63,857 bases of DNA, filler included, from Craspedostauros australis (GCA_030167865.1; 6 parts of 6 records of this genome joined end to end with filler, not necessarily neighbours in it), one strand, 5' to 3'. Shown: positions 1 through 23,045, counted from the whole stretch's first letter. Notes: a model not told the origin generated them from the sequence alone. Translations and numbers: made by a program.

Positions 1-3000
1 TTTCTTTCCCAATCTCCATGTTTGGGCTGTGATTGCTGTTGCCACGATCGCTTGACTCACCCTCGGTGTTCACCAGCGGCTGCTTGTGCAACAAATACTC
101 GGCGGCAAGCTCATTCGCCAGCGCTGTCTCGTGGATATGGCCAGAGCGGGCAGAGAACGAGATGGCCTTGTCGTATGCTGCCTTCACAGCCTCTTCCGAT
201 TCCTTTCCGGATGCCGCCATGGCATCTGCTTGCATGATCATGTATCGATGGAGAGAGGTTCCACCCTTGGTTTCGATGAACCCCTTCATGGTTTGTATAT
301 ATTGCTTCGAGCGGCGATAATACTTCCGTCGCTTTCGGTTGTTGTTGGTTATTCGTTGAGCCAGCCTGGACATGACGAGTCCAGAATGGAACGCCTTGAG
401 AGATAGGACCATCATTGAGTGCTCTGCTTTGCAAACTTGCTCAAGTGGATCGACGCACTTCTTTCCCACCTCGAGGTCACCAAAGTATGCTGCCAGTTGT
501 ATACAACTCCAACAGGTGAACATCCCTTTGATCCATTCTGAAGGCTTGGTATCTTTCACCGATATCGAGTCCACGGAACTCCTCCAGGTGTCTTGTATGC
601 ATGATGCGGCGGGGTCATTCTTGCTAGCTATGGTCATCCACATGCCGCAGGGAACCGTCAGGAACTCTTTCAGAGCATTCAGGCCGTAGTGCTCTACTTG
701 CGCAAGGAATGATTTTACCGCCCGACACAGTGGGACGAGAGGCAATCCAGCCACGGATGCGATGAGCAAACTGCTTGCCCAGCATCGGTATGCCGGCTCC
801 AAGTCGCCTGTTTCCATCGCAGCGTGATGGCCTCGACGAAGGTCGGCCAGGCACACATGAACAGGCTGGGACCAAGCATCGACGTAGCTCGCCGCCGAGG
901 CAATGTAAGCACCAAAGATGTGCTTGGATTCAGTCGCATCAATGATCCGTCTTGCCAAGGCACAGAGCCGCTTGCCCAGATCGATCTTCTTGAGGATATT
1001 GATGAGAACGACTCCGGCGCAACAGAAGGCGTAGGCTCCTTCTGCACATAGACCATGCTTCAGTGTGAGTCTGACTTGTCGGAACAGGATGAACATCAAG
1101 GTTCCAACCTGTTTCGAGCAGTGGGCTGAGAAAATCGTATGTCTCAGTAGCTCCATTGTCAGCTTCATCTTTGGGTCCGTCATGATGGAGAGATTGATTA
1201 CCTCGTCGTCAGTGTGCTTGGAGAAGTAGGTATTGATCTTCTGGAGATCCCTGAGAGCCAGGAATAGATGATTCCTCACAGGGAAGGTCTTCAAAAGGTT
1301 GAGCGATTCGAGCTGCAGAACTACCGATTCTTTGTATCGTTCCAGACGATTCAGTGCCTTGACCAACGACAAATTCACCAAGATCTTGTCCTCGATGAAG
1401 TGATCGGATCTTTCCACAATAGTTTGGCACAGCATCAATCCCTTGTCGTAGTTGCCGAGGGTCAGCTCGATCTCAGAGAGGCCGCGATAGACATCCCTGC
1501 ACAATTCATATTGCGTCTCCCAAGGATCAGCGATCTTGATCTCTAGATTCGTCAAGGCTCGGTTCAGGTACTTTGCTGCCGGAACGAAAGCAGAAACACC
1601 AACTGCGAGCTGCCCAGCCTTGAGATTGAGCTTGGTGTAGTCAATGGTTGAAATGATGTGATCAGATACCGTGAGCGACGACACGTTCTCGAGGTGGTCC
1701 GCAGCCATGAACCACATCCAGTCTTCGCCCAACATGGGATCAGATGCGATCTCCATGAGATACTTGCCCACCCGAAATTTCATTCGGTCGAGCTCGTCGC
1801 CTGGGGGTGACAGCGAGAAGGCCGCCTGCTGGATTCGATCATGAACAAAACGGAACATCGCGCCTGAGTTGACCAGGTGTTGGGTCGGACCTGCATCCGT
1901 CTCGATTCTCTCCAACAGCTCTTCCTTGACGGCCATATCCAGTGCCTCACCTACGCTCATCTCGGTCACCGACAGGGTTTTCGTGGCACCCATGCCATCT
2001 ACCAGATTCAACTGACGCTCTTCGATCTCCCAGTCCATCAACGTCTCCAACAACGACTGACGGAACGTCGATCGCAGGAATGAAGCCATCTGCAAGCACT
2101 TTTGCAGGTCCTCTGGCAGCGAATGGAGCTTCGCCGTGATCAGGTCGACCACGTTCGCTGATAGGTCGATCTCATCGGCTGCTCGCTGCTCATCCCATTC
2201 CCACTGCGACGTGTGGATGTTGCGAGTCAAGACCTTGCGACGGCGGAGCCCCTCTAGCGCCTGCATGGTGTATAGTACGTTGCCTTTGGTCTTGTCATGG
2301 AGCAACTTCGCAAGAGGGGTTGTTTTGGTGGTATCCAACCGAAGCGACGATGCGAGAAGCTCCACAGTTTGGGTGACCGTGAGATCATTGAGGGGAATGT
2401 CGTGGATGGTCTTTCCGTTGGTTTTCCACTGTGAGACCGCTGTGGTGAGTTGATGTTGAGGATCGTTGTGTACCTCGTTGGATCGGTATGATCCGATAAT
2501 GAGAAGGTTGCGGATGGAAGGATCGATCAAGATCTCAGTGATGAGCTTGAGAGATCGTTCATCAACCCATTGAAGGTCTATAGATACGAAAGATTGCGAG
2601 CGACAATGTGACACAATCGAGGTTTGAGCATGTGAGGTGGCGTTGTGCAGTGCGGCACAACGTGCCAACGTACTCGTACATATAGAAGAAAAGGTATGGG
2701 CGGTCCAAGAACATATCCGAGTCTGCAGCAATACGCGTGTACAAACCACGGTGCCGTCGGTTTCACTCACCGTCCAAATAGAGCACGAGAGGATGATCGT
2801 CGGTGCAGATAGCCTTGAGAATGACCTTGAAACCGTGCACAAGTCGAGGCCATTCTTTTTCTCTTGAAGCTACAACTCCGCGTTGGTCCGCATCGAAGAG
2901 TGGTATCGTCGTCATCGATTTTGCACCAACTGACTGTTGGTCTATCAACGGTGTCGCATGCTCCATTCCTTCCGAGCCGGCGTTGTACTTGTTGCGGTTC

Positions 3001-3061
3001 ATCATCCGAGATGGTTGAGAAACTATCTTAATCCGCTCCTGTCTGCTGACCACGTCTTGTT

Positions 3062-3095
<34 letters not shown>

Positions 3096-3980
3096 GTGAA
3101 GATTGCTCTGGCAGTCGCCCTCCAACACATTGGAAAGACCAGGAATGATTCTGCACATGCGGTCACACTGATCATCGTCCACCTTGCTGCGAATGCTGTG
3201 GCGTATGCGGTTGCTCTCCGCAACGTAATCAGGCTCGTCACCCTCCCCGAGATTCTCGAAGAAACTAGACAGAGCATCAACGATAGCTGACAAGTTGCCC
3301 GCGTTGTTGAACTGATCGTACTTTCCCTTGCCAACGTGGCATCGATGCCGATCGGCTTGTCTTTTGCCTTTTTCGGAAATCGTTTGCGCAGTGACATCAT
3401 TTGCACCTGCAGTTGATGGCGCGGTGCTCGAAGGAGCCGATTTGACACCCAAACCCTCGAGGAATTGATCCACTAGTGCGGATTTTCCTGTCCCAGAGTA
3501 TCCGTGTATGAGAACAACCTGCGGTTCCTTGTTGCCTTTGCCTGCGCTAGTTGCGTCGGATGTCTTGGATGGTTTGCGGCAGATGCGTCCGTAGATCGAA
3601 TTCAGTCGCTCCAACTCATCTTCACGCCCGATGAAGTGATCGAACCGTAGGCGATCCCACCGTCCGCTGCTTGTGCGTTGGCCATGCTGATCATCGGTGC
3701 CATCGGGATTCTCGTCGCGATCCATGGCGTTGTGTTCATCATCAGAATCTGATTGGCTGTGCGCATCATCATCGTCGATGCTGTAGATGTCGATCTTGGA
3801 TTCGATCGTTGGGCTGGCTGTTTCCTCCGCAGTGTTGGAGGTGGAAACGGCGATGCCGCTCTCGTGAGCAGAACGGTTGATGAATGCATCCACGCCACTC
3901 GCCCGTTGACCTTGCGAGAGCGAAGAAGAGCGCTTGAACGATGAGACGTCAAGGTGCTTTGAAGAGCGCTGGGTCACCAT
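1..3980 (-). CDS. STAND-like P-loop ATPase (AAA_16/COG3899-type) with helical TPR-like C-terminus, paralog A; exons 3980-2771 and 2577-<1, runs off the window edge
   Basis: Walker A HGYSGTGKS. GT donor at 2770 and AG acceptor at 2578 rebuild Walker B LVLYLD^DLQWVDERSL. Exon 2 is in frame at the window edge (ANELAAEYLLHKQ...). The ATG context GCACCAAGTCATCATG is shared with paralog C, and long stretches are nearly identical to 11059-15323. Confidence 0.85.
3062..3094. repeat. (CAG)11 microsatellite encoding a poly-Ala tract in paralog A
   Basis: Directly visible; paralog C has no such run at the equivalent position. Confidence 0.95.
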
Positions 3981-4729
3981 GATGACTTGGTGCTTTCTGG
4001 AGTGATTGTGATTCGAATGCAACGACGATCGCGTCCTCTCCTCCCATCATGAATGCCGATTCTATGGCTCCTCTTGTGATGCAGCCATCGGGAAGTGTGC
4101 CCTCTTGTGCACCGCCTATCGCTTTGGGCCCATCTCCGACCTGTGCATCCCCAATGGGTTTTTGTTGAGTCGCACAATGGGCGGTCTTCACGAATAGATT
4201 TGGTCATGGGTGTGATGGGTGTGTCTTTGGCTCGAGGTCCATGCAGTTTCTGCCACAAAGGGCAGCTAGACATTCCCCATGAGACACACTTGTCTACTTT
4301 ATGCAACTTTTCAATTAATTAACGATCCATATTCTGTTCGTGAGGAGCAGTCTAGAGTACTGGCTTCGCAGAACAGAGACACCTTGCGTTAAACAACAAG
4401 AGATGTCACAAGTGGCCCCTTCGCGATGACAGATTCGCTGTGTGACCTCGCAGTCCACAATTAGGATTTCTCGGCACTTCGCATCCGCTGTGCGGCGAGC
4501 ATAATCGCCCTCACAAAGTCGCCCCAGCAGATGGAGATTCAAGCTTGCAACACTCACTGGTAGAATACATGATTCCAAAGACCATCACACACCTCACTGC
4601 GTAATGTAATAGTACGCGCATACTGGACACAAGGAGATGTACACCAACGGCTACGCTGGGAATCGTCCACGTTGATGAGGGTGTTATCCTGGCTGCGGCT
4701 GCCTTCCGAAACGGCATCGGCCTCTCTGG

Positions 4730-5120
4730 CACCCACGGACGACAACATGCTGCGGCTCCTTGTTGCCCCTTGTTGCCCCTTCCTGCGCCGCCTGCGACAT
4801 CGTGGCTGCTGCTGTCCGATACTGTATGGTCCGCGGCAAATGGTCGCGTGGATCGATTTCTATTGATCCAGTTCATCTTCGTGTCCGATGAAGTCATCGG
4901 CCTGTAGCCAATCTCACCGTCCCCTATTTATGTTGTGATTACCATTGACGACATCGGGATTATCGTGATGATCGACGGTGTCGCGTTCATCAGGATCGCC
5001 GTTGGTATCGCAATTGTTATCCTTCATGGTGTCAACACCGGACTTCGGTTTGCGCGTTGATCTGTCCGTCTTCCTCGAACGAACGATCAGTGACGCTGTT
5101 CTTGTTGGCAGAATGGCTCA
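4730..5120 (-). pseudogene. Degenerate 5' fragment of the STAND-like ATPase gene family
   Basis: Minus strand reads GR*DWLQADDFIGHEDELDQ*KSIHATICRGP...GNKEPQHVVVRGC, versus GRWDRLRFDHFIGREDELERLNSIYGRICRKP...GNKEPQVVLIHGY in paralog A. Two in-frame stops, and similarity ends at the Walker A position. Confidence 0.8.
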
Positions 5121-6049
5121 TGTTTCGAAGAAGGCCTGATGCATACATCTCCAACAGATCTGGCAGAGCCAGCGAAAAATGAGAATAACAGAGCCATTAT
5201 AGGATGTGTGGATCAATGCTCTGTACTCAAGTATAGCGATGATCATAGAGTAGAATGGATGAATACCTTAAGAGAGGTTGTGATGGGCAGAGTAAGCACG
5301 TACCTCTTACTCCTGTGTGATCAGTTGTTGCGTCATCCCGCGTGGTCTTTTTCTGCGGTTCGTTTCGCCTATCATGGTGCACACTATAACGCTTTTTACT
5401 GGTTGCTCACACAGGATTCATGTGTTTCTCGTCCTTCGTCGACAGTTTGGGGAAACCACTTAATGAAGGTGCAGCTAATTCTATCTAACGTGCGACATGT
5501 GTCATGACGGCCTCAACGCAGGCGCGCCAAACCAAAAGAGACAAAACCCCACGCTCACATTTTCAACCAAAACGACAGAACAACAAAGAACAACACCAAT
5601 GTGACGTAGGTAATCTGCCACCAAATGATGAAGAGAGGAGCGACGCCAAGACGATCGACGAAGCAGAACTGTTCCGCACGTGGTCCACCACGCGTATCGA
5701 CGAAGATGGAAGCTGTGGAACAGGGTAGCTCAGCGACCGATACAACGACATCATCACTTTCGTTGCCTACCTACACAGTTGCCTTGCGGTGGTCTTGTTG
5801 CTGATCGCAGATGTTTGATTGTACAAATGTTATGGGATACTATTACCATACGAGCTACGAGTATGGGACTTGTGATAGTATTTGACAGCAACTTCTATCT
5901 TCCCGGGAGCGCTCACTCTCTCGGACGAACCAGCGATCCTGAGAGCACCGCACCACCACGGATGAAGGCATACCATACCAGCATACTATTATACAAAACA
6001 CTTCGATGGCTACATCATACATATAAGTACTCCCCGATATCCGCCCCAT

Positions 6050-9000
6050 CTACCCGAATAGAGTCTGTGTCTTGGCCTCCAGCACTTCCACCTTCTTCAG
6101 CGCTCCCCACTCCATATACAGCCTCGATGACTCTCCGTAGCGATACTTCGCGTCATCGCGACGACCGCAATCCATCAAGCAATCTGCAAGTCTCTCGTTG
6201 GCCAGTGCCTGGTCATGAATGAATCCACGTTGCGACGTGGTTTGAATGCTCTGCATGTATAGCGCGATCGCGGAGCTGTGCTTGCCACGCAGAAACTTCT
6301 CTTCAGCATCCAGAATTGTGAGATAATGGGGACAATTGGGATGGCCCTGCTTTTTCCACGCCTTCAACTGCTTCGTGCACTGACGGGCCGTCTTTTGATA
6401 CTTCCCGTTCGACTCGGCGCCTTGTTGCGATGCAGCAAGACAGTTCATCGCTGCACGGAAGAGGTTTGGGGGTCCAGCGAACGAGCCTATCGTCGCTTTG
6501 GCCAGCGCGAGGGCGGATGAAACCGAGAGTTTGGCTCCCATCTCGTATTCACCGAAAAACAAACACAGCTCTGCTTTGTTCATGTCAAGCGATCTCTTCC
6601 AAAGGATGGCCATCGAACCATTTTCATCGCAGCTGTCCTTGCGTTCATCGAAGGCATCGCCAATGAGGAGGATGGTATTGCTGGATGCGCCGTGAAGATT
6701 CAGAATCTTCTGCCATCCTAGGCACATGAGGTAATGCTGCTGGGTCTGATTGAAATCCAAGAGCACCTTGGCGTACGTACCACAATCGGCATCGAGCTGA
6801 GATAGCTGAGTCCCATCGAAGAAGGAGCAGGCGACATAAGTGCAGATGCCCCAGGCCGCTGCTTCCAAATCGCCGCTTGCCATTCCTGTGCGATATGCCT
6901 CCATTAGAGGCTCTTTGATCTCTTCCAATGGTTGATTCCAGTGCTGAATCATCGAGTAGAAATTGAAGATAATCGAAGCTTCGGTGGCGGGGTGATCTAG
7001 CCTGGCGAGCATTTGCAGCGAGGCACGTCCGAGATTCTCTCGCGCCTTGACGTCACCCATGGCAGATCCTGTTATGAGGCCCAGGAAGATGAAGGCGACC
7101 GGAGAATGCTCGGACATACCATACTTGACCGTTCGTTGGAAGCTCTTGTACACAAGGATGGGAATGAGCTCTGGGTCCGCGAGGTAAGAAAATTTGATAA
7201 GCTTCCCCAACGTGCTCATCACCGCGCCTTCCCTCTCGTTCGTATTCAGCGGGAGCTTGGCGATCGATTCCGATGTCATTGAATGAGCGGCACGCTTCAC
7301 CTTGAGGAGTCCGGAGATGGTCGCGAACGTTCGTTTCATCCCAGGCTTCGGAATGTTGCACCCCAGCTCTGATAGAACGTTCATGCAGAGCTGAACTGCG
7401 GCGGATTCCTTGCCATCCTGTTTGTGCTCTGCCGCCGCGATGTATGCCAGCGTATGGTAGGCATCGACCTTCTCCAGGATGTCACACCTGGATTCGACGA
7501 TGATGTTGCAGTACCTGCGAGACGTGTCAAGATCGCCTGTGACGAAGGCGCACTCTGCTGCGGAGGAATAAACTTGCAACGTCTCTTCTTGCATCGCCTC
7601 CCAGTGATTGGCTGGGAGTAGTTCGATCGCGCATCGGAAGTACCCGAGAGCCAGCTGGAATGCCGAGCAGCCAACAGCCTTGGTGCCGGCATCGAAGTTC
7701 AGCATCATCACCCGCTTGCGGCGATCGCTCTTGTTGGTGTTCGGGATCAGGTCCGGTCTTGTGTTGACGAGGTTGGTGACCATGAAGATGCGTTCATCAA
7801 GCTCGTCTTGGGAAAGGCCGAAGAGGAGGATCTCGCCCACCCGGTACTTCAGCTCCGAGAGCTGCTCCTGCTCCACCATGTCCAACGCTGCCTCTTGCAC
7901 CTTGTCGTGGCTGAAGTTGTAGATGGTGGACTGCTTCGTCTTCGTCTTCGTCTTCGCCTTCGATTTTGGCTTCGGCTTCGATCCCGTGCTGGGATGCGTC
8001 TTGCTGGATGTGTTGGCTGCATCATTTCCTACCGCATAGTCGCTGGCGACCTTGGCACTGGCTGATTTCTCCACCAAACCTTCGCGTTCGCAGGTGCAGA
8101 GCATCTTGCGGATCCCGCTGTTGGAGACGAAGCGGCTGATACCAAACACCTTGTTGACGAAGGCGGAATGGGCTGAGTGGATGGAGAGACCGCGCATCAC
8201 GACGCAGATGGTTGAGTACGAGAAGGATGCGCCCAGGCATGCTGCGATTGGCAAGATCTGTCGGGCATTCTGCACTTGTCGCAGCTTGTCCTTCATGAGC
8301 TCGATGATGTTGCTGGTTAGCGGTGAGTTGGCCTGCATCTCATCATCGTTCCACACCCATGCCCACATAGGCGTTGGCGGTGTTGATGAAATTGCTGTGG
8401 CTGACTCGGGCAGAAGCATCGATGGATTGTACTGGAGCAACCGGTCGTCGACTAACGAATGGAGGAAACGTTGCACGAAGAAGGGATTCCCACCCGTCTT
8501 CTTGTACACAATGTCTGCAAAGTGTGTCACAGCCTCGTAGCGTTCATCATTCGTCCCATCGTCTCGGTTGCTGTGGTCAGCAGTATTGCTGTATGGGATA
8601 TCGCCCTGGGGCCTCAAAAGGCAGCACAGCAGCTCCTTGACGTGATCCAGCTCCAGGTCCTGGATAGGGAGCTTGACGATGCGGAGCGACCGCTCGCGTT
8701 TGGATTCATCCAGAGCCAGCAACGTCGTCTTGAGGGTGCGGTTCTCTTCCAGCAGATTGGATCGGTAACATCCGATGACCATCAGCGAAGAGTTCTTGGT
8801 GTCCAGCATCCACGCTTGGAGAATGTCCAGCGATGCCTTGTCGGCCCATTGGATGTCATCGATGACAAAGATGAGGGGGCAGAAGTTGCAGATGATCTGA
8901 ATCAACCTTCGGAGGGCGAACTTGAGCCGATCACCGTGGGCGCGGTATCCGATGCGATCATTCCACGGTCTGGCTACGCTGTGCCTACCGGTTGCGCATG

Positions 9001-10072
9001 TGGATAGACTGGTGACCGAAACATCGTCCCTGATCGCTGTGCCGAGCACGATAGCGTGGTTAATGCCGTAGACTACTTGAGGGAGGTCCGGGATGACAGC
9101 GGACAGAACTTTGATCTCACCTCTGGTCAAGCCCTTTCTCAGGAGCTTGCGGAGGGTGGAAAGCCTTCGAGGATCCTCAAAGGCGAACGAGGCGCGTTGG
9201 CTTGCTGATGAGTGTCGCGAAGAAGGACCGGGGTGGTTGGGCGAGGAAAAGTCCTCTCCATGCTCACTTCCCGATGACGTGGAAAAGATCTTGTCACCCA
9301 TGTTCATGGATGACATGAGCATGTTGGCATGGATGTCTTGTTCGTCGCGAGGTAAGCAGAGAATCTGGTTGCACAGCTCCGTCAATGCGGACTTGATCCC
9401 AGCATACGGTTGCTCCGCATTCATTTTGGAGATCTCGCACTTGCCGGACACGAAGAATCCGTGGAAGGGACGGCGCATGTCGCTGTTGGTTGTATTGGGC
9501 AAGTTGGCATTGTGCTCAGCTGCGAACTTCTTGACTTGCATGGCGAGTGCAGTCTTTCCACTTCCCGAATGTCCCGAGATGAGAACAAGTGTTCTCTGGG
9601 ATGATCGTACCGTTTGCAACATCATCTCATCGTCGATGTTGGATGATGACTCCGTTGACGAGTCTATTGCTGCGTTCACGAACTCCTCCGAGATGGTGTG
9701 ACGAAAACGAGCGATGCTCGTCTCGCTGATACAGCTGGAGGACCGCTTCTGGCGTTGCAGGCAAGTGATACTGAATGCATGTCGCAGCATGCGGATCTCT
9801 TTGCTCCTGCCGATGAGACCCACCGTCCCGAAGGGGAGCTCCTGATCGTTCTGCTGTGGTTGTAGCAGGCTCTGCGAGTCGAAGGGAGCGATGGCAGACG
9901 AAGCATCGTCGATCACGCTGGCATCTTCTGGCGTGGACTGCCGTCGCAACTGTGGCTTTGGCTTCAATGGGATGGTATCGGCTGCATTGGCCGCGTTATT
10001 GGCCGCATCATCTTGCATGGAGATGCCAGCGTCGTTGGCAATGGCGTGGCATGGGATGACTCCAGGTGTCAT
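6050..10072 (-). CDS. STAND-like P-loop ATPase (AAA_16/COG3899-type) with TPR-like C-terminus, paralog B, intronless, ~1340 aa
   Basis: Single long ORF with first ATG at 10072. Motifs LIGRSKE, Walker A SGHSGSGKT, Walker B FVIDDIQWAD, IGCYRSN, KTGGNPFFV, FSHDKVQEAA and terminal ALANERLA...YMEWGALKKV match bacterial ATP-binding sensor kinase-type STAND proteins. Confidence 0.88.
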   Translation of the reverse strand: MTPGVIPCHAIANDAGISMQDDAANNAANAADTIPLKPKPQLRRQSTPEDASVIDDASSAIAPFDSQSLLQPQQNDQELPFGTVGLIGRSKEIRMLRHAFSITCLQRQKRSSSCISETSIARFRHTISEEFVNAAIDSSTESSSNIDDEMMLQTVRSSQRTLVLISGHSGSGKTALAMQVKKFAAEHNANLPNTTNSDMRRPFHGFFVSGKCEISKMNAEQPYAGIKSALTELCNQILCLPRDEQDIHANMLMSSMNMGDKIFSTSSGSEHGEDFSSPNHPGPSSRHSSASQRASFAFEDPRRLSTLRKLLRKGLTRGEIKVLSAVIPDLPQVVYGINHAIVLGTAIRDDVSVTSLSTCATGRHSVARPWNDRIGYRAHGDRLKFALRRLIQIICNFCPLIFVIDDIQWADKASLDILQAWMLDTKNSSLMVIGCYRSNLLEENRTLKTTLLALDESKRERSLRIVKLPIQDLELDHVKELLCCLLRPQGDIPYSNTADHSNRDDGTNDERYEAVTHFADIVYKKTGGNPFFVQRFLHSLVDDRLLQYNPSMLLPESATAISSTPPTPMWAWVWNDDEMQANSPLTSNIIELMKDKLRQVQNARQILPIAACLGASFSYSTICVVMRGLSIHSAHSAFVNKVFGISRFVSNSGIRKMLCTCEREGLVEKSASAKVASDYAVGNDAANTSSKTHPSTGSKPKPKSKAKTKTKTKQSTIYNFSHDKVQEAALDMVEQEQLSELKYRVGEILLFGLSQDELDERIFMVTNLVNTRPDLIPNTNKSDRRKRVMMLNFDAGTKAVGCSAFQLALGYFRCAIELLPANHWEAMQEETLQVYSSAAECAFVTGDLDTSRRYCNIIVESRCDILEKVDAYHTLAYIAAAEHKQDGKESAAVQLCMNVLSELGCNIPKPGMKRTFATISGLLKVKRAAHSMTSESIAKLPLNTNEREGAVMSTLGKLIKFSYLADPELIPILVYKSFQRTVKYGMSEHSPVAFIFLGLITGSAMGDVKARENLGRASLQMLARLDHPATEASIIFNFYSMIQHWNQPLEEIKEPLMEAYRTGMASGDLEAAAWGICTYVACSFFDGTQLSQLDADCGTYAKVLLDFNQTQQHYLMCLGWQKILNLHGASSNTILLIGDAFDERKDSCDENGSMAILWKRSLDMNKAELCLFFGEYEMGAKLSVSSALALAKATIGSFAGPPNLFRAAMNCLAASQQGAESNGKYQKTARQCTKQLKAWKKQGHPNCPHYLTILDAEEKFLRGKHSSAIALYMQSIQTTSQRGFIHDQALANERLADCLMDCGRRDDAKYRYGESSRLYMEWGALKKVEVLEAKTQTLFG

Positions 10073-10154
10073 GGTCGGAATCGCACGATAGCGTAGTATG
10101 TGAGACGGAAGGTATGGCTTGTGCTGCACAATGCAACGTGTATTGTGATGATAT

Positions 10155-10208
10155 GGTATGTGCGGTATGTATGGTATGTGTGGTATGTGCGGTATGTGCG
10201 GTATGGCA
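10155..10208. repeat. Six imperfect copies of the 9-mer GGTATGTGC upstream of paralog B
   Basis: Directly visible tandem repeat. Confidence 0.85.
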
Positions 10209-11058
10209 CGATGGAGTGACGTGCGATGAGAACTTATGCGAGAGGATGAGATTTTGTGTGTCTGTCGCCGAGGTTCTGTCGCTCGGCCACGCTACTTCTT
10301 GACAACTCATGAGCTCTGTCTTGTACCAGCCCAAGCGCGAGTTGTTGCGGAATTTCGCTATTTCGCGATCGGAATAATCGATCCGTGGAGGTCATTTGCG
10401 ATTGTGCATGTTACTAGAAATGTGAGACCAGCGATATCCCAAAACATCCCATGAGAGCCATTGAGGCTCTATTGTCGATGATGCATGTCCCCATGACATT
10501 TTCGTAGATGCTTCCCGCATACTATTAGGTCCACCAGCTCATCATCTCGCGAGTGGTGGTGGATCATTTCGACATCCGCGAACATCGTTTGACGAATACT
10601 CGCAAGACATATCAGACCCGATCTTTGCCGCTCGCTTTCATTGCGTTAATCGTACTTTTATCAGAATGAGAAAGTGGAAGTGATGTACTCTTGTAACTTC
10701 GGAAGAGAATTCGCTATAGAACATTAAATCGAACTCTGCCCAAGTTCCCATCATAATGCTCAAACAAGATCGCGAAAGGCAGGAAGACTTCATCGACGCC
10801 AAATCCAAGACTACACGTACTTGGTCATGCCTGCATTCAGCCTGTGGGTGGTAACTCTCAACTCTCTCTGTCTCCATCCTCCTACGTATGTAACGTGAGA
10901 AACTCGAGTAGGAAACAGTGGCTGACCACATACGACTACTCTACATCTTACGGATAGATCAAAGTTCCGAAAGAACGGGCCATAGGCAAGGATATTGGAA
11001 CTTTTCGAGTTGGACTAATACAGGATTAGATTCATCCCAAGATATAGAAAATGCACAT

Positions 11059-14000
11059 TCACAACGCATCAACGTTCACCTCCGTCATCATCTTGTGGGC
11101 TGCGGCGACACACATTCGAGTGTCCGCGGTATGTTTCATCATGGTTCGGTTTTGCGGTCGGCCGGCACCTCCTCTTCCATGCCCATCCACACCGTCCTCC
11201 GTCATGCTTCGGTCAAAAAAGTTCGGATATTTCTCCACCAACTGTTCCACCTTTGCCTTTGCTCCCCACTCGTTGTACAGCGAGATGGCATTCCCCAGAT
11301 ACTGCCGCGGCCAGTAGGATTCTGTATCGTCATACCAGATACTTGTGCTCTCGAGAGCCATGCTGCCTTCATTCCCAGGCTCAGCCTTTGTACTGTGGTT
11401 ACTGTCACCACGAGTCGACTCGCGTCTGATGCTCGCCCGCGGCTGCTTGTTCAGAAAGTACTCGGCGGCAAGCTCATTCGCCAGTGCTGTCTCGTGGATG
11501 TGGCCAGAGCGGGCAGAGAACGAGATGGCCTTGTCATAGGCCGCTCTCACAGTCTCTTCTGATTCCTTTCCGGATGCCGCCATGGCGTCTGCTTGCATGA
11601 TCATGTACCGATGAAGTGGGTTCCCGCCCATGTTCTCGATGAAAGCCTTCATGGTTTGTATATATTGCTTCGAGCGGCGATAATACTTCCGTCGCTTTCG
11701 AGTATTGGTGGTGGTCCGTTGAGCCAGCCTGGACATGGTGAGCCCGCAATGGAATGCCTCGAGAGCTAGAATTAGCATTGAATTCTCTGCTTTGCAAAGA
11801 TGCGAAAGTGGTGCGATGCACTTCTTTCCAACCTCCAGGTCACCAAAGTAGGTTGCCAGTTGTATGCAACTCCAATAGATGTACGTCCATGTGATCCATT
11901 CTGAAGGATTGATATCTTTCACCGATATCGAGTCCACAGAACTCCTCCAGTTGCCTTGTGTAAATGGTGCCGTGGGGTCGCTGGTGCCACGTAAGATCCC
12001 CCACATACCGCAGGAAAGCAGGTAGTGTTCTGCTTGAGATTTTAGACCATAGTGTTGTGTTTGCGCATAAAATGAGTCCCCCGCTCGACACAATGAGACG
12101 AGAGGTAAGCCAGCCACGGACGCTTGGAGCAAACTCATTCCCCAGCACCGGTACGCCGCCTCCAAGTCACCCGCCTCCATTGACTGTTGGTGACCTCGAC
12201 GTAGGTCGGCCAAACACGTATGAATAGGCTCGGTCCATGCATCGATGAAGACTCCCATTGTGGCAATGTAATTCCCGAAGATATGCTTGGAATCAGTTGC
12301 ATTCATGATGCGTCTCGACAAGGCACACAACCGTTTGCCCAGATCTATGTTGTTGAGGGTGTTGATGAGAAGGACTCCGCCGCAACAAACGGCGAAGCCA
12401 CCTCCTCCGGATAGACCATGTTTCAGCACGAGCCTGACTTGTCGGAGCACGATGAAGATTAATGTTCCAATCTGGTTGGCGCAATAGGCCGTGAAGATTG
12501 CCTGCTCCAATAGCTCCATTGTGAGCTTCACCTTTGGGTTCATCAGGATGGGGAGCTTCATTACGTCTTCGTCGGTGTGTTTGGAGAAGTAGGTGTTGAT
12601 CTTGTGTTTGTCTCTGAGAGCCAGGAATAGATGATTCCTCACGGGGACTGTCCCTAAAAACCTGAGCGATTCGAACTGGAGATCCAGCGCTTCTTGGAAT
12701 CGGTCCATCCGATTCAATGCCTTTACCAACGACAAGTTCACCAAGATCTTGTCCTCAACGAACTTGTCAGATCTCTTGACGATGGTCTCGCACAGCATCA
12801 ATCCCTTGTCGTAGTTGCCGAGGATCAGCTCGGTCTCAGAGAGGCTGTGATACACATCCCTGCAAAGCCTGTACTGCGTCTCCCAAGGATCAGCGATCTT
12901 GAGCTTCAGGATCGTTAAGGCTCGGTTGAAGTACTTCGTTGCCGGAACAAAGGCAGACACATCAACTGCAAGCTGTCCTGCCTTGAGGTTGAGATTGATG
13001 AGATCGATGAGATCGATGGTTGGAATGATGTGATCGGATATCGTGAGTGACGACACGTTCTCGAGGTGGTCCGCAGCCATGAACCACATCCAGTCTTCGC
13101 CCAGCATGGGATCAGATGTGATCTCCATGAGATACTTGCCCACCCGAAACTTCATCTGGTCAAGCTCGTCACCCGGAGGAGACAGCGAGAAGGCCGCCTG
13201 CTGGATTCGATCGTGGGCGAAGCGGAACGTCGCGCCCGAGTCGACAGCGGCTTCAGCTGGACCTGCGTCCGGATTGGCACTGGTCCTCTCGAGCAGTTCC
13301 TCTTTCACTGCCATGTCCAGTGCCTCACCTACGCTCATCTCGGTCACTGCCAAGGTGCGCATTGCGTTTTCACCATCTGTCTGATGAATCTGATGCTGTT
13401 CCATCTCCCAGTCCATCAGCGTTTCCAACAACGACTGACGGAACGTCGATCGTAGGAATGAAGCCATCTGCAGGCACTTTTGCAGGTCCTCCGGAAGCGA
13501 ATGCAGCTTCGATGTGATCAGGTCGACCACGTTCGCTGATAGGTCGATCTCATCGGCTGCTCGCTGCTCATCCCATTCCCATTGCAGCGTGTGGATGTTG
13601 CGAGTCAGAGCCTTGCGACGGCGCAATCCCTCCAACGCTTGCGTGGTGTAGAGAACGTTGCCTTTGGTCTTGTCGTGGAGCAACTTGGCCAGAGGGGTTG
13701 TTTCGGTAGTATCTAACCGAAGTGACGATGCGAGGAGCTCCGCGGTTTGAGGTATCGTGAGATCATTGAGCGGCATGTCATGGACGGCCTTTCCGCTGAT
13801 CTTCCATTGCGAGACGGCAGTGGTGAGTTGATGCTGAGGATCGTTGTGCACCTCGTTGGATCGGTATGATCCGATGATGAGAAGGTTGCGAATGGAAGGA
13901 TCAATCAAGATCTCAGTGATGAGCTTGAGTGATCGTTCGTCGATCCCTTGAAGATCTGGCCATATTGGGTCGTATTGTATTGTGCCGAGGTATGGTACGA

Positions 14001-15323
14001 GTAGCGTGCGGGTGTGAGAAGGAGATAGGGTTGCACTCGCACAAAGCAGCGCAAACAGGAAGGCGCAGACAAGCACAGTCAACTCCATCCAAGTACGGGC
14101 GTGCGGCCATATGGATTCCCAACGTAGACATAGGTCGTCATAGAGCAGACGAAATACGCCACAGAATGGCCGAATGACCTTGTCGCATTTCACTCACCAT
14201 CCAGATGGAGCACGAGTGGACGACTGTCGGTGCAGATGGCCTTGAAGACGACTTTGACACCATGCACGAGTCGAGGCCAGTCTTTTTCTCTCGATCCCAC
14301 ACCTCCACGTTGGTCCGCGTCGAAAAGTGATATTGTTGTTGCCGGTTTTGCGATCCCTGGGTGCTCATCGATCAGCGGTGCGACATGGTCGACTGGTTCC
14401 GCACCAGCATTCCGCTTGTTGGGATGTATCGTCGGGGATGGCTCCGAAGACAGCCTTGCTCGTTCTCGTTCTTTGATATTGGATATTTCACTTGCAGCGA
14501 TCTCTGGATTGTTCTCACGATCACCCGCAAGAAAATTGGAAAGACCAGGAATGATTTTGCACATGCGGTCGCACTGGTCATCATCCACCTTGCTGCGAAT
14601 GCTATCTCGAATGCGGTTGCTCTCCGCAACATCACCAGCCCCCCTGAGATGATCGAAGAGGCTCGACAAAGCATCGATGATGGCCGACAAGTTGCCTGCG
14701 TTGTTGAACTGATCGTATTTTCCAATGCCAACATGGCATGGGTGCAAATCAGCTTGTCTCTTCTTTTGCTCAATACCACCACCTCTATTTGACGCGGATG
14801 ATGCGATGCTCAATTGTGATGATTTGGCACCCAAACCCTCGAGGAATTGATCCACTAGGGCAGATTTTCCTGTCCCAGAGTATCCGTGAACCAGAACAAT
14901 CTGCGGTTCCTTGTCGCCTTTGCCGTCGCCATTGGCGATGCCGTCGCCGCTGCCGTCTGATGTTTTGGATGGTTTACGGCAAATATGCCCGTAGATCGAG
15001 TTCAGTCGTTCCAACTCCTCTTCGCGCCCAATGAAATGATCGAACCGTAGGCGATCCCACCGTCCGCTGCTTGTGCTGTGGCCATTGGGATTCTCATCAC
15101 GATCGATGGCGTTATGTTCACCATCATCGTCGATGCTGTAGATGTCGATCTTGGATTCGAACGGGGAGCTGGCTGTCTCCTGCGCAGTATTGGTGGCGAC
15201 ATCTGAGGCGGCGGCGGCATTCGCGTCCACATCACTCCCGTGATGCCCTGGCGATAGCGAAGCAAGCTGATCGCATTCGAAGGATGCGGCGCACGAGCCA
15301 TTTGAGGCGCGGCGAGTCGTCAT
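11059..15323 (-). CDS. STAND-like P-loop ATPase with TPR-like C-terminus, paralog C; exons 15323-14198 and 13955-11059, ~1340 aa
   Basis: Walker A HGYSGTGKS. Intron 13956-14197 (GT...CAG) sits at the same Walker B position as in paralog A, giving LVLHLD^DLQGIDERSL. Also IIGSYRSNEV, KTKGN, FRFAHDRIQQAAF and YNEWGAKAKV. Confidence 0.88.
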
Positions 15324-16354
15324 GATGACTTGGTGCTTTCCAGCTGTGGTTCTGTTGCAATGATGATCGCTTCTTCAATTGTGAGCCTCAGGCTATGCAA
15401 CCACGCTGCTCATTCATAGATTCTTGTGGGTTCAGCCATCGCGGAGCTTGCTGTGGCGAGGACCGCATTCGGTTTTGCTGCAGGACTTCCATGGTGCCTC
15501 TTCGACTGATGCATTGCCTTTGCAGGTGGATCAGCGGCAGTAGACGCAGCAGATGTCTGCCTGGTCGTCGCTGCACAGTTTCTGTTTCGATTCTCACCGG
15601 AACCAGCTCAATGTTGGCTTGGCCACGGCTGAGCATTTTTGGAGTAAGCAAGAAAAGCTTCTGTCAGTCCGCTTCGGTCCAAATTCATGGCGACCACAAA
15701 ATCTGATGATCCCACACATGAAGCGTGCGCACATGAATGGAATCACCAAACATCCTTTGGTTTGGCGTGCCAGTGCTGGTGTCGGTAACGACAATGAGGC
15801 GCTTGGTGTAGAACGAAGAAGATGAACTATCCTCAACTATGGAGACATCGTTTGTCACAAGCAACATGTTGGCATGATGACAAGGGTCAGCACAACGTCC
15901 ATGTCTGTTGTCCTTGACAGCATCAGGCACGGCCATTTGTATCCATTCGACTCGTTTGAACAAGAAAGATGACTGTTGGAACCACGAATGCAGGCTATCT
16001 AGGAGTTCTCACAATCATCGTTGATAGCGTCACGTTTGTGAACAATGATGGACATGAGGATTTCTCAGCACTTCGCGCTGTCATCCGAAGACGATCGAAC
16101 ATCTCCAGAACAGTCGATGCAGTAACGCAGGCAGGGCAGCAGCATTCCTGAGGCACATTTGTGGTCCAGACACTACTCTAGAATAGAAAAGATTATGTGA
16201 ACGCGTTCTCCAGTGGCCAGGTGATCCAGAAAATCGAGAGTGTCGATCTGAGTGCGAACGTTTCGTTGAGAACTGTGAGGCAGCTCCTTCTCGCTTCACA
16301 TGAACTGGTTGATCCTCTCCGATCGTAGCGGACATGTATTCGCGCTCGCCATAC

Positions 16355-17002
16355 TCACAGCGCATCCAAGTTCACCTCTGCCATGATCTTGTGGGCGGCA
16401 GCCACGCACATTCGAGTGTCTGCTGTGTGCTTGGTGGTTCTTCGTCTTGGATGTCGCATCTTTCTATCTCCATGGCTCGTGCTGACGCTGCTCGTATCTG
16501 CGCCGTCCACGCTGCTTCTGTCGACGAGGTTCGGGTACTTTTGCAACAGCTGCTCCACCTTTGCCTTCGCCCCCCATTCGTTGTACAGAGAGATAGCATT
16601 TCTCAGATGCTCTCGTGGCCAAAATAGATCCGTTTCGTCTTCCAACGTGCTCCCAAACTCGTAGGTGGAGCTGCCGCCGCCGTTGGTTGAAAACATGCTG
16701 CTGGTGCCGAGCAGGGGGTTGCCCATGGTGCTCGCACTGAGACGCATTGACCCCCCTCTGGTAATTGGCGAAGGTGATTTTGTGAGGAAGTACTCAGCAG
16801 TAAGTTCATTCGCCAACGCCGTTTCGTGGATGTAGCCAGAGCGGGCAGCGGTTGATATGGCCTTGTCGTATGCTGCCTTCACAGAATCTTCCGACTCCTT
16901 TCCCGATGCTGCCATCAGGTCCGCTTGCATGAGCAGGTATCGGTGGAGGTTGTTGCCACCCCTCAGTTCGATGGTCGCTTTCAAACCGTCGCAGAACTGC
17001 TG
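16355..17002 (-). CDS. C-terminal part of a fourth STAND-like paralog (D), truncated by the contig end
   Basis: GYIHETALANELTAEYFL...AISLYNEWGAKAKVEQL...KHTADTRMCVAAAHKIMAEVNLDAL* matches the end of paralog C. The frame is open up to the gap. Confidence 0.88.
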   Translation of the reverse strand, partial: QQFCDGLKATIELRGGNNLHRYLLMQADLMAASGKESEDSVKAAYDKAISTAARSGYIHETALANELTAEYFLTKSPSPITRGGSMRLSASTMGNPLLGTSSMFSTNGGGSSTYEFGSTLEDETDLFWPREHLRNAISLYNEWGAKAKVEQLLQKYPNLVDRSSVDGADTSSVSTSHGDRKMRHPRRRTTKHTADTRMCVAAAHKIMAEVNLDAL

Positions 17003-17102: not shown

Positions 17103-18555
17103 AATTCATTTCGATTCGAGGTGCTCTTGATACTTCGCAATCGCCCCTTTCTCGAAACTCTTGATGGCGAAGTTGACGACCGTCTGGTTGATGGTGGCCG
17201 TCGCTGCATTCAGCACACCCTCCGGAAGCAGCCTCATTGGAGCGGGGAGCTTGCCACCTGATTCGAACGATATCTTCCCCGTCAAGCCCTTCCCGTCATC
17301 AGACGCGCGTAGCTCACCGACCACCTCAATCTCAATTCCCAATGCCTCCGGAGATATCGACATGCCTGGGAGAATCTCGACTTGGGGATCGAATGCGACG
17401 GATTGCAACGCAAACACCGGCAGGTTGGGATCGTTCCGAACCAATCCGGTCCACATCTTGATGTCGACGGTGGGCGCGAGCTTCAGCGTGACGAACTGCA
17501 AATTCATGGTGCGTAGCCGGTAGATGGAATTCCCCAACTCCGTCGTCAGATCTTCATCCCAGATGGACATGGCCAACGACCTCTCATCCTTGAGCCACTC
17601 CACGATGGATTCTCGGTCGGCCTCGTCCCGAAGTTCGGTTACCAACGCCGCGGTGGCACCGAACTTGATGTCGCCCTTGCGTCGTTCCAACGCAAAGTAG
17701 GGTCCGTCGCGTGACAGAAGTTCTCGCCGTCGAGACATGACCGTGTTCTGTGGCTTCGTTGTGGATGCAGACGACATGCGCAATGGTCCAACTGATGACA
17801 CATGTCGCGATGATGTGTCCACTACGTCAGAAGGCAGGGTGGCTTGCGCAACATTCGTCGCAACGGGGGCAAATGCAACTGTGGAGCACCCCATGATGGC
17901 CACAAGGCAGAGGGAGCGGATCATCATGACGGCGATGGAAGTTGTTGGAAAGGATGCCTTCAGGTGCCTGGCTTGGTTGATGGATGGATGGATGGATGGA
18001 GAATTTGTGGATGGGTGAGCGATGGGTGAGTAATGCGTGATCGTTGCTTCATTGCGCACTTTGATAGAAAGGCATGGCATGATCCCAATGTTCGAACCAG
18101 GACACGACCCGCAATGCGTCAGATGCTCTGAGGTCGTACAATAGGTGCGATGCACAAAGACCATTGATGATGGTTTGTTTCGATGATGTGTGTCTGCGTT
18201 GCACGACTATTCCGCTTCTTTTCTTCATTCATTTGTTCGTTTTTCTGTTGTTGGCGTGTGCGTCATCGGCGTTGGACTTTTCCTGTTTCTGATTTTCGAT
18301 CGAATCGGTCAATGAAGAACCATTGAATCTACGACCACATGGACTGTATGTTTTGAAGATACCAACTTGACACGATATCACCCGGATGTGTCATGACGAC
18401 CACAACAGCTTCTTGTTCCGCGTGTCGGAATCCGTCAACAGAACGACGCAGTGTGTGTCATGCTGTGATCCACGGGGAGGATGTTGGCACTCTCTCGATC
18501 ATCATTCCTCCTTTCTTGTGCCGTTCTTGTTCTTGTTCTTGTCCTCGTTTCCTTC
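17103..18555. repeat. 1453-bp apparently exact inverted duplicate of 21336-22788 (contig overlap)
   Basis: End points mirror exactly (17103<->22788, 18555<->21336), the ORF translations are identical, and each copy begins at a linker. Confidence 0.95.
17106..17927 (-). CDS. DUF1997-like (SRPBCC-fold) plastid-targeted protein; copy 1
   Basis: Bipartite presequence MMIRSLCLVAIMGCSTVA^FAP. The core LAMSIWDEDLTTELGNSIYRLRTMNLQFVTLKLAPTVDIKMW resembles cyanobacterial/plant DUF1997. Confidence 0.65.
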   Translation of the reverse strand: MMIRSLCLVAIMGCSTVAFAPVATNVAQATLPSDVVDTSSRHVSSVGPLRMSSASTTKPQNTVMSRRRELLSRDGPYFALERRKGDIKFGATAALVTELRDEADRESIVEWLKDERSLAMSIWDEDLTTELGNSIYRLRTMNLQFVTLKLAPTVDIKMWTGLVRNDPNLPVFALQSVAFDPQVEILPGMSISPEALGIEIEVVGELRASDDGKGLTGKISFESGGKLPAPMRLLPEGVLNAATATINQTVVNFAIKSFEKGAIAKYQEHLESK

Positions 18556-21335: not shown

Positions 21336-21963
21336 GAAGGAAACGAGGACAAGAACAAGAACAAGAACGGCACAAGAAAGGAGGAATGATGATCGAGAGA
21401 GTGCCAACATCCTCCCCGTGGATCACAGCATGACACACACTGCGTCGTTCTGTTGACGGATTCCGACACGCGGAACAAGAAGCTGTTGTGGTCGTCATGA
21501 CACATCCGGGTGATATCGTGTCAAGTTGGTATCTTCAAAACATACAGTCCATGTGGTCGTAGATTCAATGGTTCTTCATTGACCGATTCGATCGAAAATC
21601 AGAAACAGGAAAAGTCCAACGCCGATGACGCACACGCCAACAACAGAAAAACGAACAAATGAATGAAGAAAAGAAGCGGAATAGTCGTGCAACGCAGACA
21701 CACATCATCGAAACAAACCATCATCAATGGTCTTTGTGCATCGCACCTATTGTACGACCTCAGAGCATCTGACGCATTGCGGGTCGTGTCCTGGTTCGAA
21801 CATTGGGATCATGCCATGCCTTTCTATCAAAGTGCGCAATGAAGCAACGATCACGCATTACTCACCCATCGCTCACCCATCCACAAATTCTCCATCCATC
21901 CATCCATCCATCAACCAAGCCAGGCACCTGAAGGCATCCTTTCCAACAACTTCCATCGCCGTC

Positions 21964-22785
21964 ATGATGATCCGCTCCCTCTGCCTTGTGGCCATCATGG
22001 GGTGCTCCACAGTTGCATTTGCCCCCGTTGCGACGAATGTTGCGCAAGCCACCCTGCCTTCTGACGTAGTGGACACATCATCGCGACATGTGTCATCAGT
22101 TGGACCATTGCGCATGTCGTCTGCATCCACAACGAAGCCACAGAACACGGTCATGTCTCGACGGCGAGAACTTCTGTCACGCGACGGACCCTACTTTGCG
22201 TTGGAACGACGCAAGGGCGACATCAAGTTCGGTGCCACCGCGGCGTTGGTAACCGAACTTCGGGACGAGGCCGACCGAGAATCCATCGTGGAGTGGCTCA
22301 AGGATGAGAGGTCGTTGGCCATGTCCATCTGGGATGAAGATCTGACGACGGAGTTGGGGAATTCCATCTACCGGCTACGCACCATGAATTTGCAGTTCGT
22401 CACGCTGAAGCTCGCGCCCACCGTCGACATCAAGATGTGGACCGGATTGGTTCGGAACGATCCCAACCTGCCGGTGTTTGCGTTGCAATCCGTCGCATTC
22501 GATCCCCAAGTCGAGATTCTCCCAGGCATGTCGATATCTCCGGAGGCATTGGGAATTGAGATTGAGGTGGTCGGTGAGCTACGCGCGTCTGATGACGGGA
22601 AGGGCTTGACGGGGAAGATATCGTTCGAATCAGGTGGCAAGCTCCCCGCTCCAATGAGGCTGCTTCCGGAGGGTGTGCTGAATGCAGCGACGGCCACCAT
22701 CAACCAGACGGTCGTCAACTTCGCCATCAAGAGTTTCGAGAAAGGGGCGATTGCGAAGTATCAAGAGCACCTCGAATCGAAATGA
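21964..22785 (+). CDS. DUF1997-like plastid-targeted protein; copy 2 (same locus as 17106-17927)
   Basis: Translation identical to the minus-strand copy. Confidence 0.65.
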   Translation: MMIRSLCLVAIMGCSTVAFAPVATNVAQATLPSDVVDTSSRHVSSVGPLRMSSASTTKPQNTVMSRRRELLSRDGPYFALERRKGDIKFGATAALVTELRDEADRESIVEWLKDERSLAMSIWDEDLTTELGNSIYRLRTMNLQFVTLKLAPTVDIKMWTGLVRNDPNLPVFALQSVAFDPQVEILPGMSISPEALGIEIEVVGELRASDDGKGLTGKISFESGGKLPAPMRLLPEGVLNAATATINQTVVNFAIKSFEKGAIAKYQEHLESK

Positions 22786-23045
22786 ATTCCATGCAGCAGG
22801 AACAATCTGGATTCGAAATCAAATCGAAAGTACAACACCTTATCTATGTGGTAGTATTTGGAGAGATTGATCCAGCCTTTGTCTCTTCTAGAGATTCATA
22901 CAGACACATATTCCTAGGTTAGCTTCATTGTACCACATCGTGCAGCTTCCAAGCCATCTTGTTATCTCCACTCGCAGGAGCGGGAGGCCGAAACACTGCA
23001 AGGTCCTTCCGTCATCTTGCAACTTATGAATCTGGTACACATGCA

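Follow-up and report, generated by a model that had tools for sequence, protein, structure and literature searches.

A tandem cluster of effector-less MalT-like STAND ATPase genes in the diatom Craspedostauros australis, apparently part of a large diatom-wide family

Introduction

What is encoded by the large paralogs that follow one another on the same strand of a 17-kb contig from the diatom Craspedostauros australis (GCA_030167865.1), and what might they do in the cell? The stretch of DNA analyzed here, referred to as the window, is 63,857 nucleotides long and consists of six contigs joined by N runs; the genes in question lie on contig 1 (positions 1-17002, with an N run from 17003). A sequence-only reading of the window had taken them for bacterial-type signal transduction ATPases with numerous domains (STAND) that carry a tetratricopeptide repeat (TPR) region, and had suggested that they form a cluster of receptors resembling the NLRs (nucleotide-binding proteins with leucine-rich repeats) of immunity. 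To our knowledge, little has been established on the intracellular sensing of viruses, bacteria and other cues in diatoms, for which an NLR-type system has yet to be described. Here, we report that the cluster apparently consists of nuclear diatom genes belonging to a large, diatom-wide family of MalT-like STAND ATPases, and we weigh a role in signaling against a role in defense.

Results

A same-strand array of paralogs fills contig 1

We built the gene models from minus-strand stop-to-stop open reading frames (ORFs) together with a reading of the exon joints. The minus strand of contig 1 holds genes A, B, C and D and one dead N-terminal fragment, with the following features in window coordinates:

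Gene A, exon 1: 3980..2771, minus strand; low-complexity N-terminus, start of AAA_16 (E 6.7e-10) and Walker A GYSGTGKS.
Gene A, predicted intron: 2770..2578 (193 nt), minus strand; GTGAGT...TAG, phase 1, inside the Walker B codons (after LD, before D).
Gene A, exon 2: 2577..1, minus strand; from the second Asp of Walker B to near the C-terminus.
Pseudogene fragment: 5078..4702, minus strand; about 110 N-terminal codons of A/C type, matching A 51-160 and C 66-118 by tblastn.
Gene B: 10072..6053 (stop to 6050), minus strand; single-exon ORF of 1340 residues with no intron.
Gene B, predicted nucleotide-binding oligomerization module: 7823..9820 (about residues 85-750), minus strand; nucleotide-binding domain (NBD), helical domain, winged helix and arm.
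Gene B, predicted TPR-like superhelical sensor: 6053..7810 (about residues 755-1340), minus strand; model residues 615-1200, all helical hairpins.
Gene C, exon 1: 15323..14198, minus strand; N-terminus, AAA_16 (E 4.3e-9) and Walker A GYSGTGKS.
Gene C, predicted intron: 14197..13956 (242 nt), minus strand; GTGAGT...CAG, site and phase as in gene A.
Gene C, exon 2: 13955..11062 (stop to 11059), minus strand; WGAKAK at residue 1272, then a tail of about 60 residues.
Gene D: 17002..16358 (stop to 16355), minus strand; last 215 codons only, A/C-type C-terminus with WGAKAKV.

This layout confirms the proposed array of same-strand paralogs of about 1340 residues accompanied by a pseudogene fragment, as both gene B and the spliced, stop-free product of gene C are 1340 residues long. 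Gene A is open at the contig start, leaving 1262 residues visible and about the last 100 residues, including the WGA motif, missing. Since the contig ends inside gene D, we regard this gene as incomplete, not as a shown pseudogene. The fragment between genes A and B, by contrast with the intact copies, contains a frameshift as well as two in-frame stop codons, and its Walker A has degenerated to GCQRGRCR (versus GYSGTGKS).

The introns of A and C were predicted from their GT-AG ends, the restored reading frame and homology. They share one phase-1 position between the two Walker B Asp codons, at which gene B has no intron. A and C are 82.6% identical in DNA over 2541 nt, and this similarity ends at the exon 2 boundary, as would be expected of a real intron. 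At the protein level, A and C are 72% identical overall (76% for exon 2 over 864 residues), and D has an identity of 58% with C and 66% with A, whereas B is only 23% identical to A or C. These identities imply that the array is made of three recent copies (A, C and D) and one old paralog (B). Of the earlier description, then, the four large paralogs are all present, although one is cut by the contig end and the array mixes recent copies with an ancient paralog; the tandem copies, the dead fragment and the presence or absence of an intron are likewise all there. We found no family copy on the other contigs of the window, and contig 1 has no other eukaryotic genes and none fit to act as partners.

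The proteins share an AAA_16 core and a set of spaced motifs

For domain content, we searched six pieces of the genes against Pfam, with a gathering cutoff of 32.6 bits for AAA_16 (PF13191) and other families screened at E<=0.01. AAA_16 scored above its cutoff in B (60.1 bits, E 4.8e-16), A exon 1 (40.1 bits) and C exon 1 (37.5 bits), and no other family exceeded its cutoff in the six pieces. NACHT, NB-ARC and LRR gave no match at E<=0.01 in the same pieces, and no helix-turn-helix (HTH), GerE or other DNA-binding Pfam domain was found in the window's proteins. NCBIfam yielded sub-threshold matches only (TOMM_kin_cyc, for instance, scored 29 bits where its cutoff is 706), and no PADLOC family matched B, A exon 2, C exon 1 or C exon 2 at E<=0.01.

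All of the motifs named by the sequence-only reading (Walker A/B, YRSN, a KTxGN-type motif, FxHDxxQxAA and WGAxxKV) could be found in the translations. In gene B, these are Walker A GHSGSGKT (residue 167), Walker B LIFVIDDIQW (400-409), YRSN (436), TGGNPF (526), FSHDKVQEAA (720) and WGALKK (1322). A and C have Walker A GYSGTGKS, keep YRSN, carry TKGNVL without the Pro of GNP, and have F(V/A)HDRIQQAA; their Walker B reads LVLYLDDLQW in A and LVLHLDDLQG in C, where Gly replaces the conserved Trp of DDLQW at about residue 380 (window ~13940). GNV in A and C thus stands against GNP in B and in most of the bacterial homologs scanned. WGAxxKV is present in B, C and D. The motifs recur with matching spacing in most of 23 bacterial homologs, for example WGAxxK in 19/23 and F-x-HD in 17/23.

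B and six close relatives share nothing ahead of the first AAA_16 helix, and the N-termini encoded on contig 1 are probably disordered, judging from low complexity, the lack of a Pfam domain and the lack of conservation. A short amyloid-type N-terminal signaling motif was considered and rejected for B, as B and the six relatives have no conserved motif ahead of the ATPase, and there is no small neighboring gene; A and C, which share SKIDIYSIDDD, may carry such a motif. Just upstream of the B start codon, at ~10144-10207 on the minus strand, we observed a short tandem repeat that reads in-frame as HIPHIPHIPYIPHIPY and presumably belongs to the 5′ untranslated region or the promoter. Farther along, there are a poly-Ala run at residues ~290-300 of A and a Lys/Pro/Thr-rich run, KPKPKSKAKTKTKTK, at residues ~690-705 of B inside the winged-helix region. 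Both runs sit in low-confidence insertions that are missing from the bacterial homologs.

The predicted fold resembles both halves of MalT

We modeled residues 141-1340 of B with AlphaFold, using an alignment of 41 family members, and compared the model with solved structures by Foldseek (search) and VIA-align (alignment). The model reached a predicted local distance difference test score (pLDDT) of 81.9 and a predicted template modeling score (pTM) of 0.79. By Foldseek, the top match in the Protein Data Bank (PDB) was the STAND-TPR protein PH0952 (6mfv, E 6.7e-6), and the results also listed Avs3 (8dgc, E 1.2e-4) and many TPR proteins. A phmmer search of B against PDB sequences returned 0 matches at E<=0.01.

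When the two halves of the model were aligned separately, the N-module (model residues 2-715) matched the nucleotide-binding oligomerization module of MalT (8bob_C) with Z 12.5 and a root-mean-square deviation (rmsd) of 5.0 over 371 aligned residues, PH0952 (6mfv_A) with Z 11.7 over 604, and Orc/Cdc6 proteins with Z 11-12. The C-module matched MalT domain III (1hz4) with Z 17.8 and rmsd 4.4 over 328/366 residues, and TPR proteins with Z 14-19, including APPBP2 (8jal, Z 18.9) and an APC subunit (4ui9_O, Z 17.9). Three long low-confidence insertions interrupt the N-module of B, in the NBD and the winged helix. On this model, the closest solved architecture is that of MalT minus its DNA-binding domain. 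The matches to the MalT halves and to 6mfv bear out the proposed combination of a STAND ATPase with a TPR-like superhelix, and the structure prediction that had been put forward as a check returned STAND, winged-helix and TPR-like folds for B. We assign the proteins to the STAND class because Walker A/B, a sensor Arg region, a GxP-type motif (lacking its Pro in A and C), the winged-helix His and a predicted repeat sensor are all present.

Homology is confined to the bacterial core

To place the genes among known proteins, we compared B with its homologs by several searches. In a word-indexed search, the first two proteins were effector-less, one of 1326 residues (35% identity) and one from Seminavis robusta (27%). 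These were followed by bacterial proteins of 1700-2200 residues at ~24% identity that combine Pkinase, AAA_16 and GAF with HisKA/HATPase, cyclase or GGDEF domains. Overall, bacterial homologs were 23-27% identical to the B core over ~850-1000 residues; NCBI names them [quoted passage not shown] With seven full-length bacterial homologs as tblastn queries, the alignments were confined to their residues ~250-1345 and to B residues ~400-1300 (E 1e-63 to 1e-94), with no match over the kinase (residues 1-250) or the GAF/output parts. The predicted sensor matches bacterial signaling proteins from one end to the other and accounts for the longest aligned stretch (query 573-1199 in most phmmer rows). 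TPR_CHK1 (PF25503) is annotated in several bacterial homologs and matched weakly in one homolog (P0198), but was not reached at E<=0.01 by the window's proteins.

We also looked for output modules in the DNA around the genes. Among 70 intergenic ORF pieces of at least 40 residues on both strands, no Pfam family scored above its cutoff (best E 0.018), and neither a kinase, a GAF nor a HisKA exon was found on the contig. Gene B ends 12 residues past WGALKKV and gene C ~62 past WGAKAKV. These observations agree with two earlier claims, that the core is of the bacterial COG3899/AAA_16 STAND type and that the kinase and GAF/histidine kinase (HK) modules are absent, since AAA_16 is above cutoff, the homology is limited to the bacterial core, nothing was found in the genes or between them, and B stops right after the WGA motif. 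The data support that the genes are effector-less at this locus as predicted; distant 5′ or 3′ exons are possible, and A and D run off the contig.

The named members of an effector-less clade are all diatoms

With B residues 141-1340 as the phmmer query against 1.84 billion representative proteins, we obtained 15,629 matches at E<=1e-3 and 5,466 at E<=1e-30. Among the best 150 of the 15,629, short proteins dominate, 132 being 1530 residues or less. WG[AS]xx[KR] occurs in 93/132 of these, in 91 cases no farther than 100 residues from the C-terminus (median 28), whereas in the 18 long matches the motif is followed by a median of 574 residues. Pfam analysis of 36 of the best 150 gave the same division: AAA_16 without kinase, GAF or HK in 29/31 proteins of up to 1704 residues, no family in the other 2/31, and Pkinase, GAF and an output domain in all 5 longer proteins. 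Even in twelve members with 300-590 residues before the ATPase, no N-terminal Pfam domain was detected at E<=0.01.

Closest to B are transcripts of Stauroneis constricta (MMETSP/EukProt) at 40-45% identity, which implies that the family is expressed in a relative. Seminavis, Cylindrotheca, Skeletonema, Ditylum and a Bacillariaceae metagenome-assembled genome account for the other named members. For the A/C/D subfamily, the best outside relative is 37% identical over 62% of the query. In the ESM Atlas, the neighbor cluster of B comprises 122 members named "Orc1-like AAA ATPase domain-containing protein," 80% of them Eukaryota, with Bacillariophyta as the most frequent group; a bacterial cluster of ~1011-residue AAA_16 proteins, of which only 14% carry GAF, hints that short bacterial forms exist as well.

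Phylogenetic analysis of 101 rows with FastTree gave a two-clade split with a support of 99. One clade (65 rows) contains A, B and C, all 11 diatom-named rows and one MMETSP transcript, and the other (36 rows) contains all 18 bacteria-named rows. Every named member of the A/B/C clade is a diatom, and most of its 65 rows are called eukaryotic only through grouping with the named diatom sequences; when ten environmental proteins were looked up by cluster, one alone had a name, "predicted ATPase." Within it, B groups with Stauroneis, and A and C group with one unnamed relative and, more distantly, with a Skeletonema protein; these separate placements imply that B and A/C are old paralogs that happen to share one array. 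In a quick IQ-TREE tree of 43 rows with one distant AAA_16/SARP outgroup, the diatom clade (23 rows, support 99) joins P0190, P0198 and P0210 (support 100), and the joint clade nests in a bacterial kinase-bearing grade. One of these three, P0190 (1359 residues, on a 4.3-kb contig), has a partial kinase domain (PK_Tyr_Ser-Thr, E 7.5e-7) before AAA_16 and no GAF, and may represent an intermediate stage at which the output modules were only partly lost.

The rooted tree is compatible with the horizontal acquisition that had been proposed, yet it depends on a single long-branch outgroup. Because of this outgroup and the short tree search, we take it as no more than suggestive that the family had a single bacterial origin and that its output modules were gone before diatoms radiated. 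The proposal that both modules were lost also needs rewording: they are absent here, but the loss did not take place at this locus, as the effector-less form is common to the diatom clade.

A profile scan of metagenome contigs (7-row alignment) recovered 78 loci, mostly of bacterial type (21-31% identity), with two short matches at 45-48%. Among the 70 mostly bacterial-type loci with a match to the Walker B region, five (L018, L031, L043, L049 and L050) have a second family copy within ~10 kb. Paired copies, therefore, occur outside diatoms too.

The family is not new to diatom genomics in terms of numbers. According to Table 1 of the T. oceanica genome paper (PMC3491386, 2012), COG3899 ("Predicted ATPase") is one of the domains found most abundantly in diatom genomes and numbers 42 copies in T. 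oceanica, 48 in T. pseudonana, 11 in P. tricornutum and 2 in F. cylindrus, and a passage of PMC3478156 describes three T. pseudonana genes that combine a diatom-specific 80-residue domain with COG3899. The earlier idea of an expanded stramenopile sensor family thus holds, for diatoms, as to size, although the abundance itself was already in that 2012 table.

Purifying selection acts on the A/C pair

For A versus C, we obtained a nonsynonymous rate (dN) of 0.159 and a synonymous rate (dS) of 0.552, a dN/dS of 0.29. In windows along the pair, dN/dS was 0.26-0.72 in the sensor and 0.07-0.25 in the ATPase/winged-helix region, with none above 0.72; the peak of 0.5-0.7 fell within the sensor at C residues 965-1114. 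The A/C pair is under purifying selection. Across the 41 family members, mean pairwise identity was 30% for the sensor versus 35% for the NBD, and the sensor has a fixed length of ~590 residues, whole in one exon.

The remaining contigs carry ordinary genes

Positions 17103-63857 encode ordinary eukaryotic genes, including Tam41, a chalcone-isomerase-like protein, an EamA transporter, an ACT-formyltransferase, Prp19, a PI3/PI4-kinase, a GRDP-WWE protein and a GT34-like glycosyltransferase, along with long ORFs without a Pfam family at 25604-29068, 30149-34132, 41245-44268 and 46781-49201. We also observed that contigs 2 and 3 begin with 1453 bases each (17103-18555 and 21336-22788, respectively) that are exact reverse complements of one another (100% identity), and that both contig ends encode the same DUF1997 protein. 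The shared 1453 bases imply that contigs 2 and 3 overlap head to head and are probably joined in the genome.

Discussion

A likely switch or scaffold in signaling

The genes of contig 1 have a defined architecture, a predicted MalT-like fold and homology to the core of bacterial Pkinase-COG3899-GAF-output proteins, and they fall into one effector-less clade that includes diatom transcripts. We favor, with a probability of roughly 70%, that the proteins are MalT-like STAND switches or scaffolds in signaling whose output passes through partners. Most likely they signal or act as scaffolds inside the cell in response to environmental or metabolic cues, as does the bacterial parent family; a role in sensing pathogens is conceivable.

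Each protein would read, from its N-terminus, as a variable low-complexity segment, an AAA_16 nucleotide-binding oligomerization module and a fixed-length TPR-like sensor ending at WGAxxKV. By analogy with MalT and other STAND proteins, the resting state would be an ADP-bound closed monomer, and binding of a ligand or partner to the TPR-like domain would trigger nucleotide exchange and then oligomerization. As the protein itself lacks an enzymatic output, the signal would pass to proteins recruited to the oligomer. More speculatively, the variable acidic/Ser-rich N-terminal tails, gathered by oligomerization, could recruit these downstream proteins.

Several points weigh against this interpretation. 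ATP binding, oligomerization, ligand and partners are all argued by analogy with MalT and other STAND proteins. No Pfam TPR family matches the helical region, so that "TPR-like" refers to the model, and helical repeats can reach Z ~13-14 by chance according to the note of the alignment tool itself, although the scores of MalT domain III and APPBP2 exceed that level. The fold of A, C and D is assigned from 23% identity to B over ~960-1030 residues (E 1e-37 to 1e-42). GNV in A and C and the loss of Trp in C suggest that some copies may be impaired switches. Lastly, housekeeping signaling accounts no better than a conflict-driven family would for copy numbers that vary between species from 2 to 48, for the tandem duplication, for the dead copy and for the raised dN/dS in part of the sensor.

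Relation to known systems

MalT of Escherichia coli (8bob, 1hz4) offers the closest parallel, as it shares with the B model an NBD, helical domain, winged helix and arm followed by a superhelical TPR-like sensor. Unlike MalT, the diatom proteins have no C-terminal LuxR/GerE domain, their sensor is longer, and they would contain the long low-confidence insertions of the NBD and winged helix. The bacterial Pkinase-COG3899(AAA_16)-TPR-GAF-output proteins are homologous in their core from Walker A to WGAxxKV, with the same motifs and spacing, whereas the diatom proteins form a separate clade and lack the N-terminal kinase and the C-terminal GAF/PAS, HisKA-HATPase, GGDEF or cyclase domains. In the relevant passage of a review (PMC12599244), every CP1 pseudokinase of bacteria is linked to COG3899, in many cases together with GAF/PAS, and the group is treated as uncharacterized signaling proteins. 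The diatom entries named COG3899 or "Orc1-like AAA ATPase" (Stauroneis, Seminavis, Cylindrotheca, Skeletonema and Ditylum) belong to the same family and have the same effector-less architecture; what sets the present locus apart is that the copies lie in tandem, that A and C share the intron in Walker B and that an A/C/D subfamily is present.

Fungal CHK1-type hybrid histidine kinases have a kinase-AAA-GAF-HK architecture. The name TPR_CHK1 and the presence of this domain in bacterial homologs indicate a shared helical module, but the window's proteins lack the kinase and HK parts. Avs proteins and NLRs likewise place a repeat sensor after a P-loop STAND switch; they differ from the proteins studied here, which have no N-terminal effector and no NACHT, NB-ARC, LRR or PADLOC match, and whose sensor is conserved instead of hypervariable. 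Within the stramenopiles, Zambounis et al. (2012; PMC3341825) present the NB-ARC-TPR and LRR-ROCO genes of Ectocarpus as candidate receptors. As described there, the Ectocarpus NB-ARC-TPR genes resemble the diatom family in being a clustered stramenopile STAND-plus-TPR set, proposed as pathogen receptors, while they belong to a different STAND family and combine NB-ARC with TPRs from shuffled repeat exons, where the diatom genes have AAA_16 and the sensor in one exon.

Alternative interpretations

The reading that prompted this analysis holds that the proteins are NLR-like intracellular immune receptors, in which the TPR-like domain recognizes viral, bacterial or oomycete molecules, the ATPase oligomerizes, and defense or cell death follows via partners. 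The combination of STAND and superhelical sensor is indeed the NLR/Avs architecture, and Avs3 is among the Foldseek matches. The locus has tandem copies, a dead fragment and a gained or lost intron, copy number is uneven across the diatoms tabulated in PMC3491386 (42, 48, 11 and 2), and dN/dS is higher in the sensor than in the ATPase/winged-helix region. Nevertheless, the screens for NACHT, NB-ARC and LRR and for PADLOC models (four pieces) were empty at E<=0.01, there is no effector domain, and the contig offers no candidate partner genes. The sensor is nearly as conserved as the NBD and fixed in length, unlike the variable repeat arrays of typical immune receptors; dN/dS is 0.29 overall with no window above 1; and what accompanies the core in the bacterial kin is a kinase, GAF, HK, GGDEF or cyclase module instead of a killing domain. 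As the evidence against outweighs the evidence for, we treat an immune role as a hypothesis and consider it unlikely. A broader version, in which diatoms turned the bacterial kinase/HK regulatory core into stand-alone MalT-type STAND proteins, intracellular receptors of viruses, bacteria or other biotic cues that signal by oligomerization only, assembling partners at their disordered N-terminal tails, and that expanded per lineage (2-48 copies, tandem clusters and dead copies), strikes us as somewhat more doubtful again.

Two further explanations concern what the genes are, not what they sense. They could be MalT/LAL-type transcription regulators, as the database name of a Seminavis homolog would have it; both halves of the model match MalT, and two homologs (P0003 and P0206) are named "Transcriptional regulator" in their source. 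However, the Pfam screen found no DNA-binding domain, and in B the chain ends so soon after WGALKKV, with the last TPR helix reaching the end of the model, that there is no room for one; the name was probably carried over from MalT/LAL similarity, and we regard this explanation as very improbable. Finally, the genes could lack a function, either as remnants of a bacterial gene transfer that are now decaying or as contaminating bacterial DNA in the assembly, in keeping with the dead fragment, the missing Pro of GNP in A and C, the missing Trp of DDLQW in C and the lack of any other eukaryotic gene on the contig. Decay fits poorly with the open frames of 1340 residues in B and C and with a dN/dS of 0.29 at a dS of 0.55. 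A and C share a GT-AG intron at one site and resemble each other in their exons only, transcripts from diatoms are the nearest relatives, and all named members of the clade are diatoms; bacterial contamination was rejected because of the introns and the diatom relatives. Of all the explanations weighed, we give this one the least credence.

Implications for diatom biology

The literature that we searched contains no paper that analyzes the diatom COG3899 family or proposes an immune role for it. Within that literature, the architecture, fold, ancestry and clustering of the family are new, while its abundance in diatoms has been known since 2012. The family had previously been in print as a line in a domain-count table (PMC3491386), and its database names, "Transcriptional regulator" and "Orc1-like AAA ATPase," are misleading. 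A large, expressed family with species-variable copy number is now defined in its architecture, predicted fold and probable ancestry, which gives clear constructs and boundaries for experiments. It also indicates that a STAND-TPR core can persist for a long time without any fused output domain. If the proteins are ordinary signaling machinery, as we favor, the family would serve as a helpful case of domains lost following what was probably a transfer from bacteria; if they were instead receptors of biotic cues, NLR-like immunity would have been invented independently in one of the major marine algal groups.

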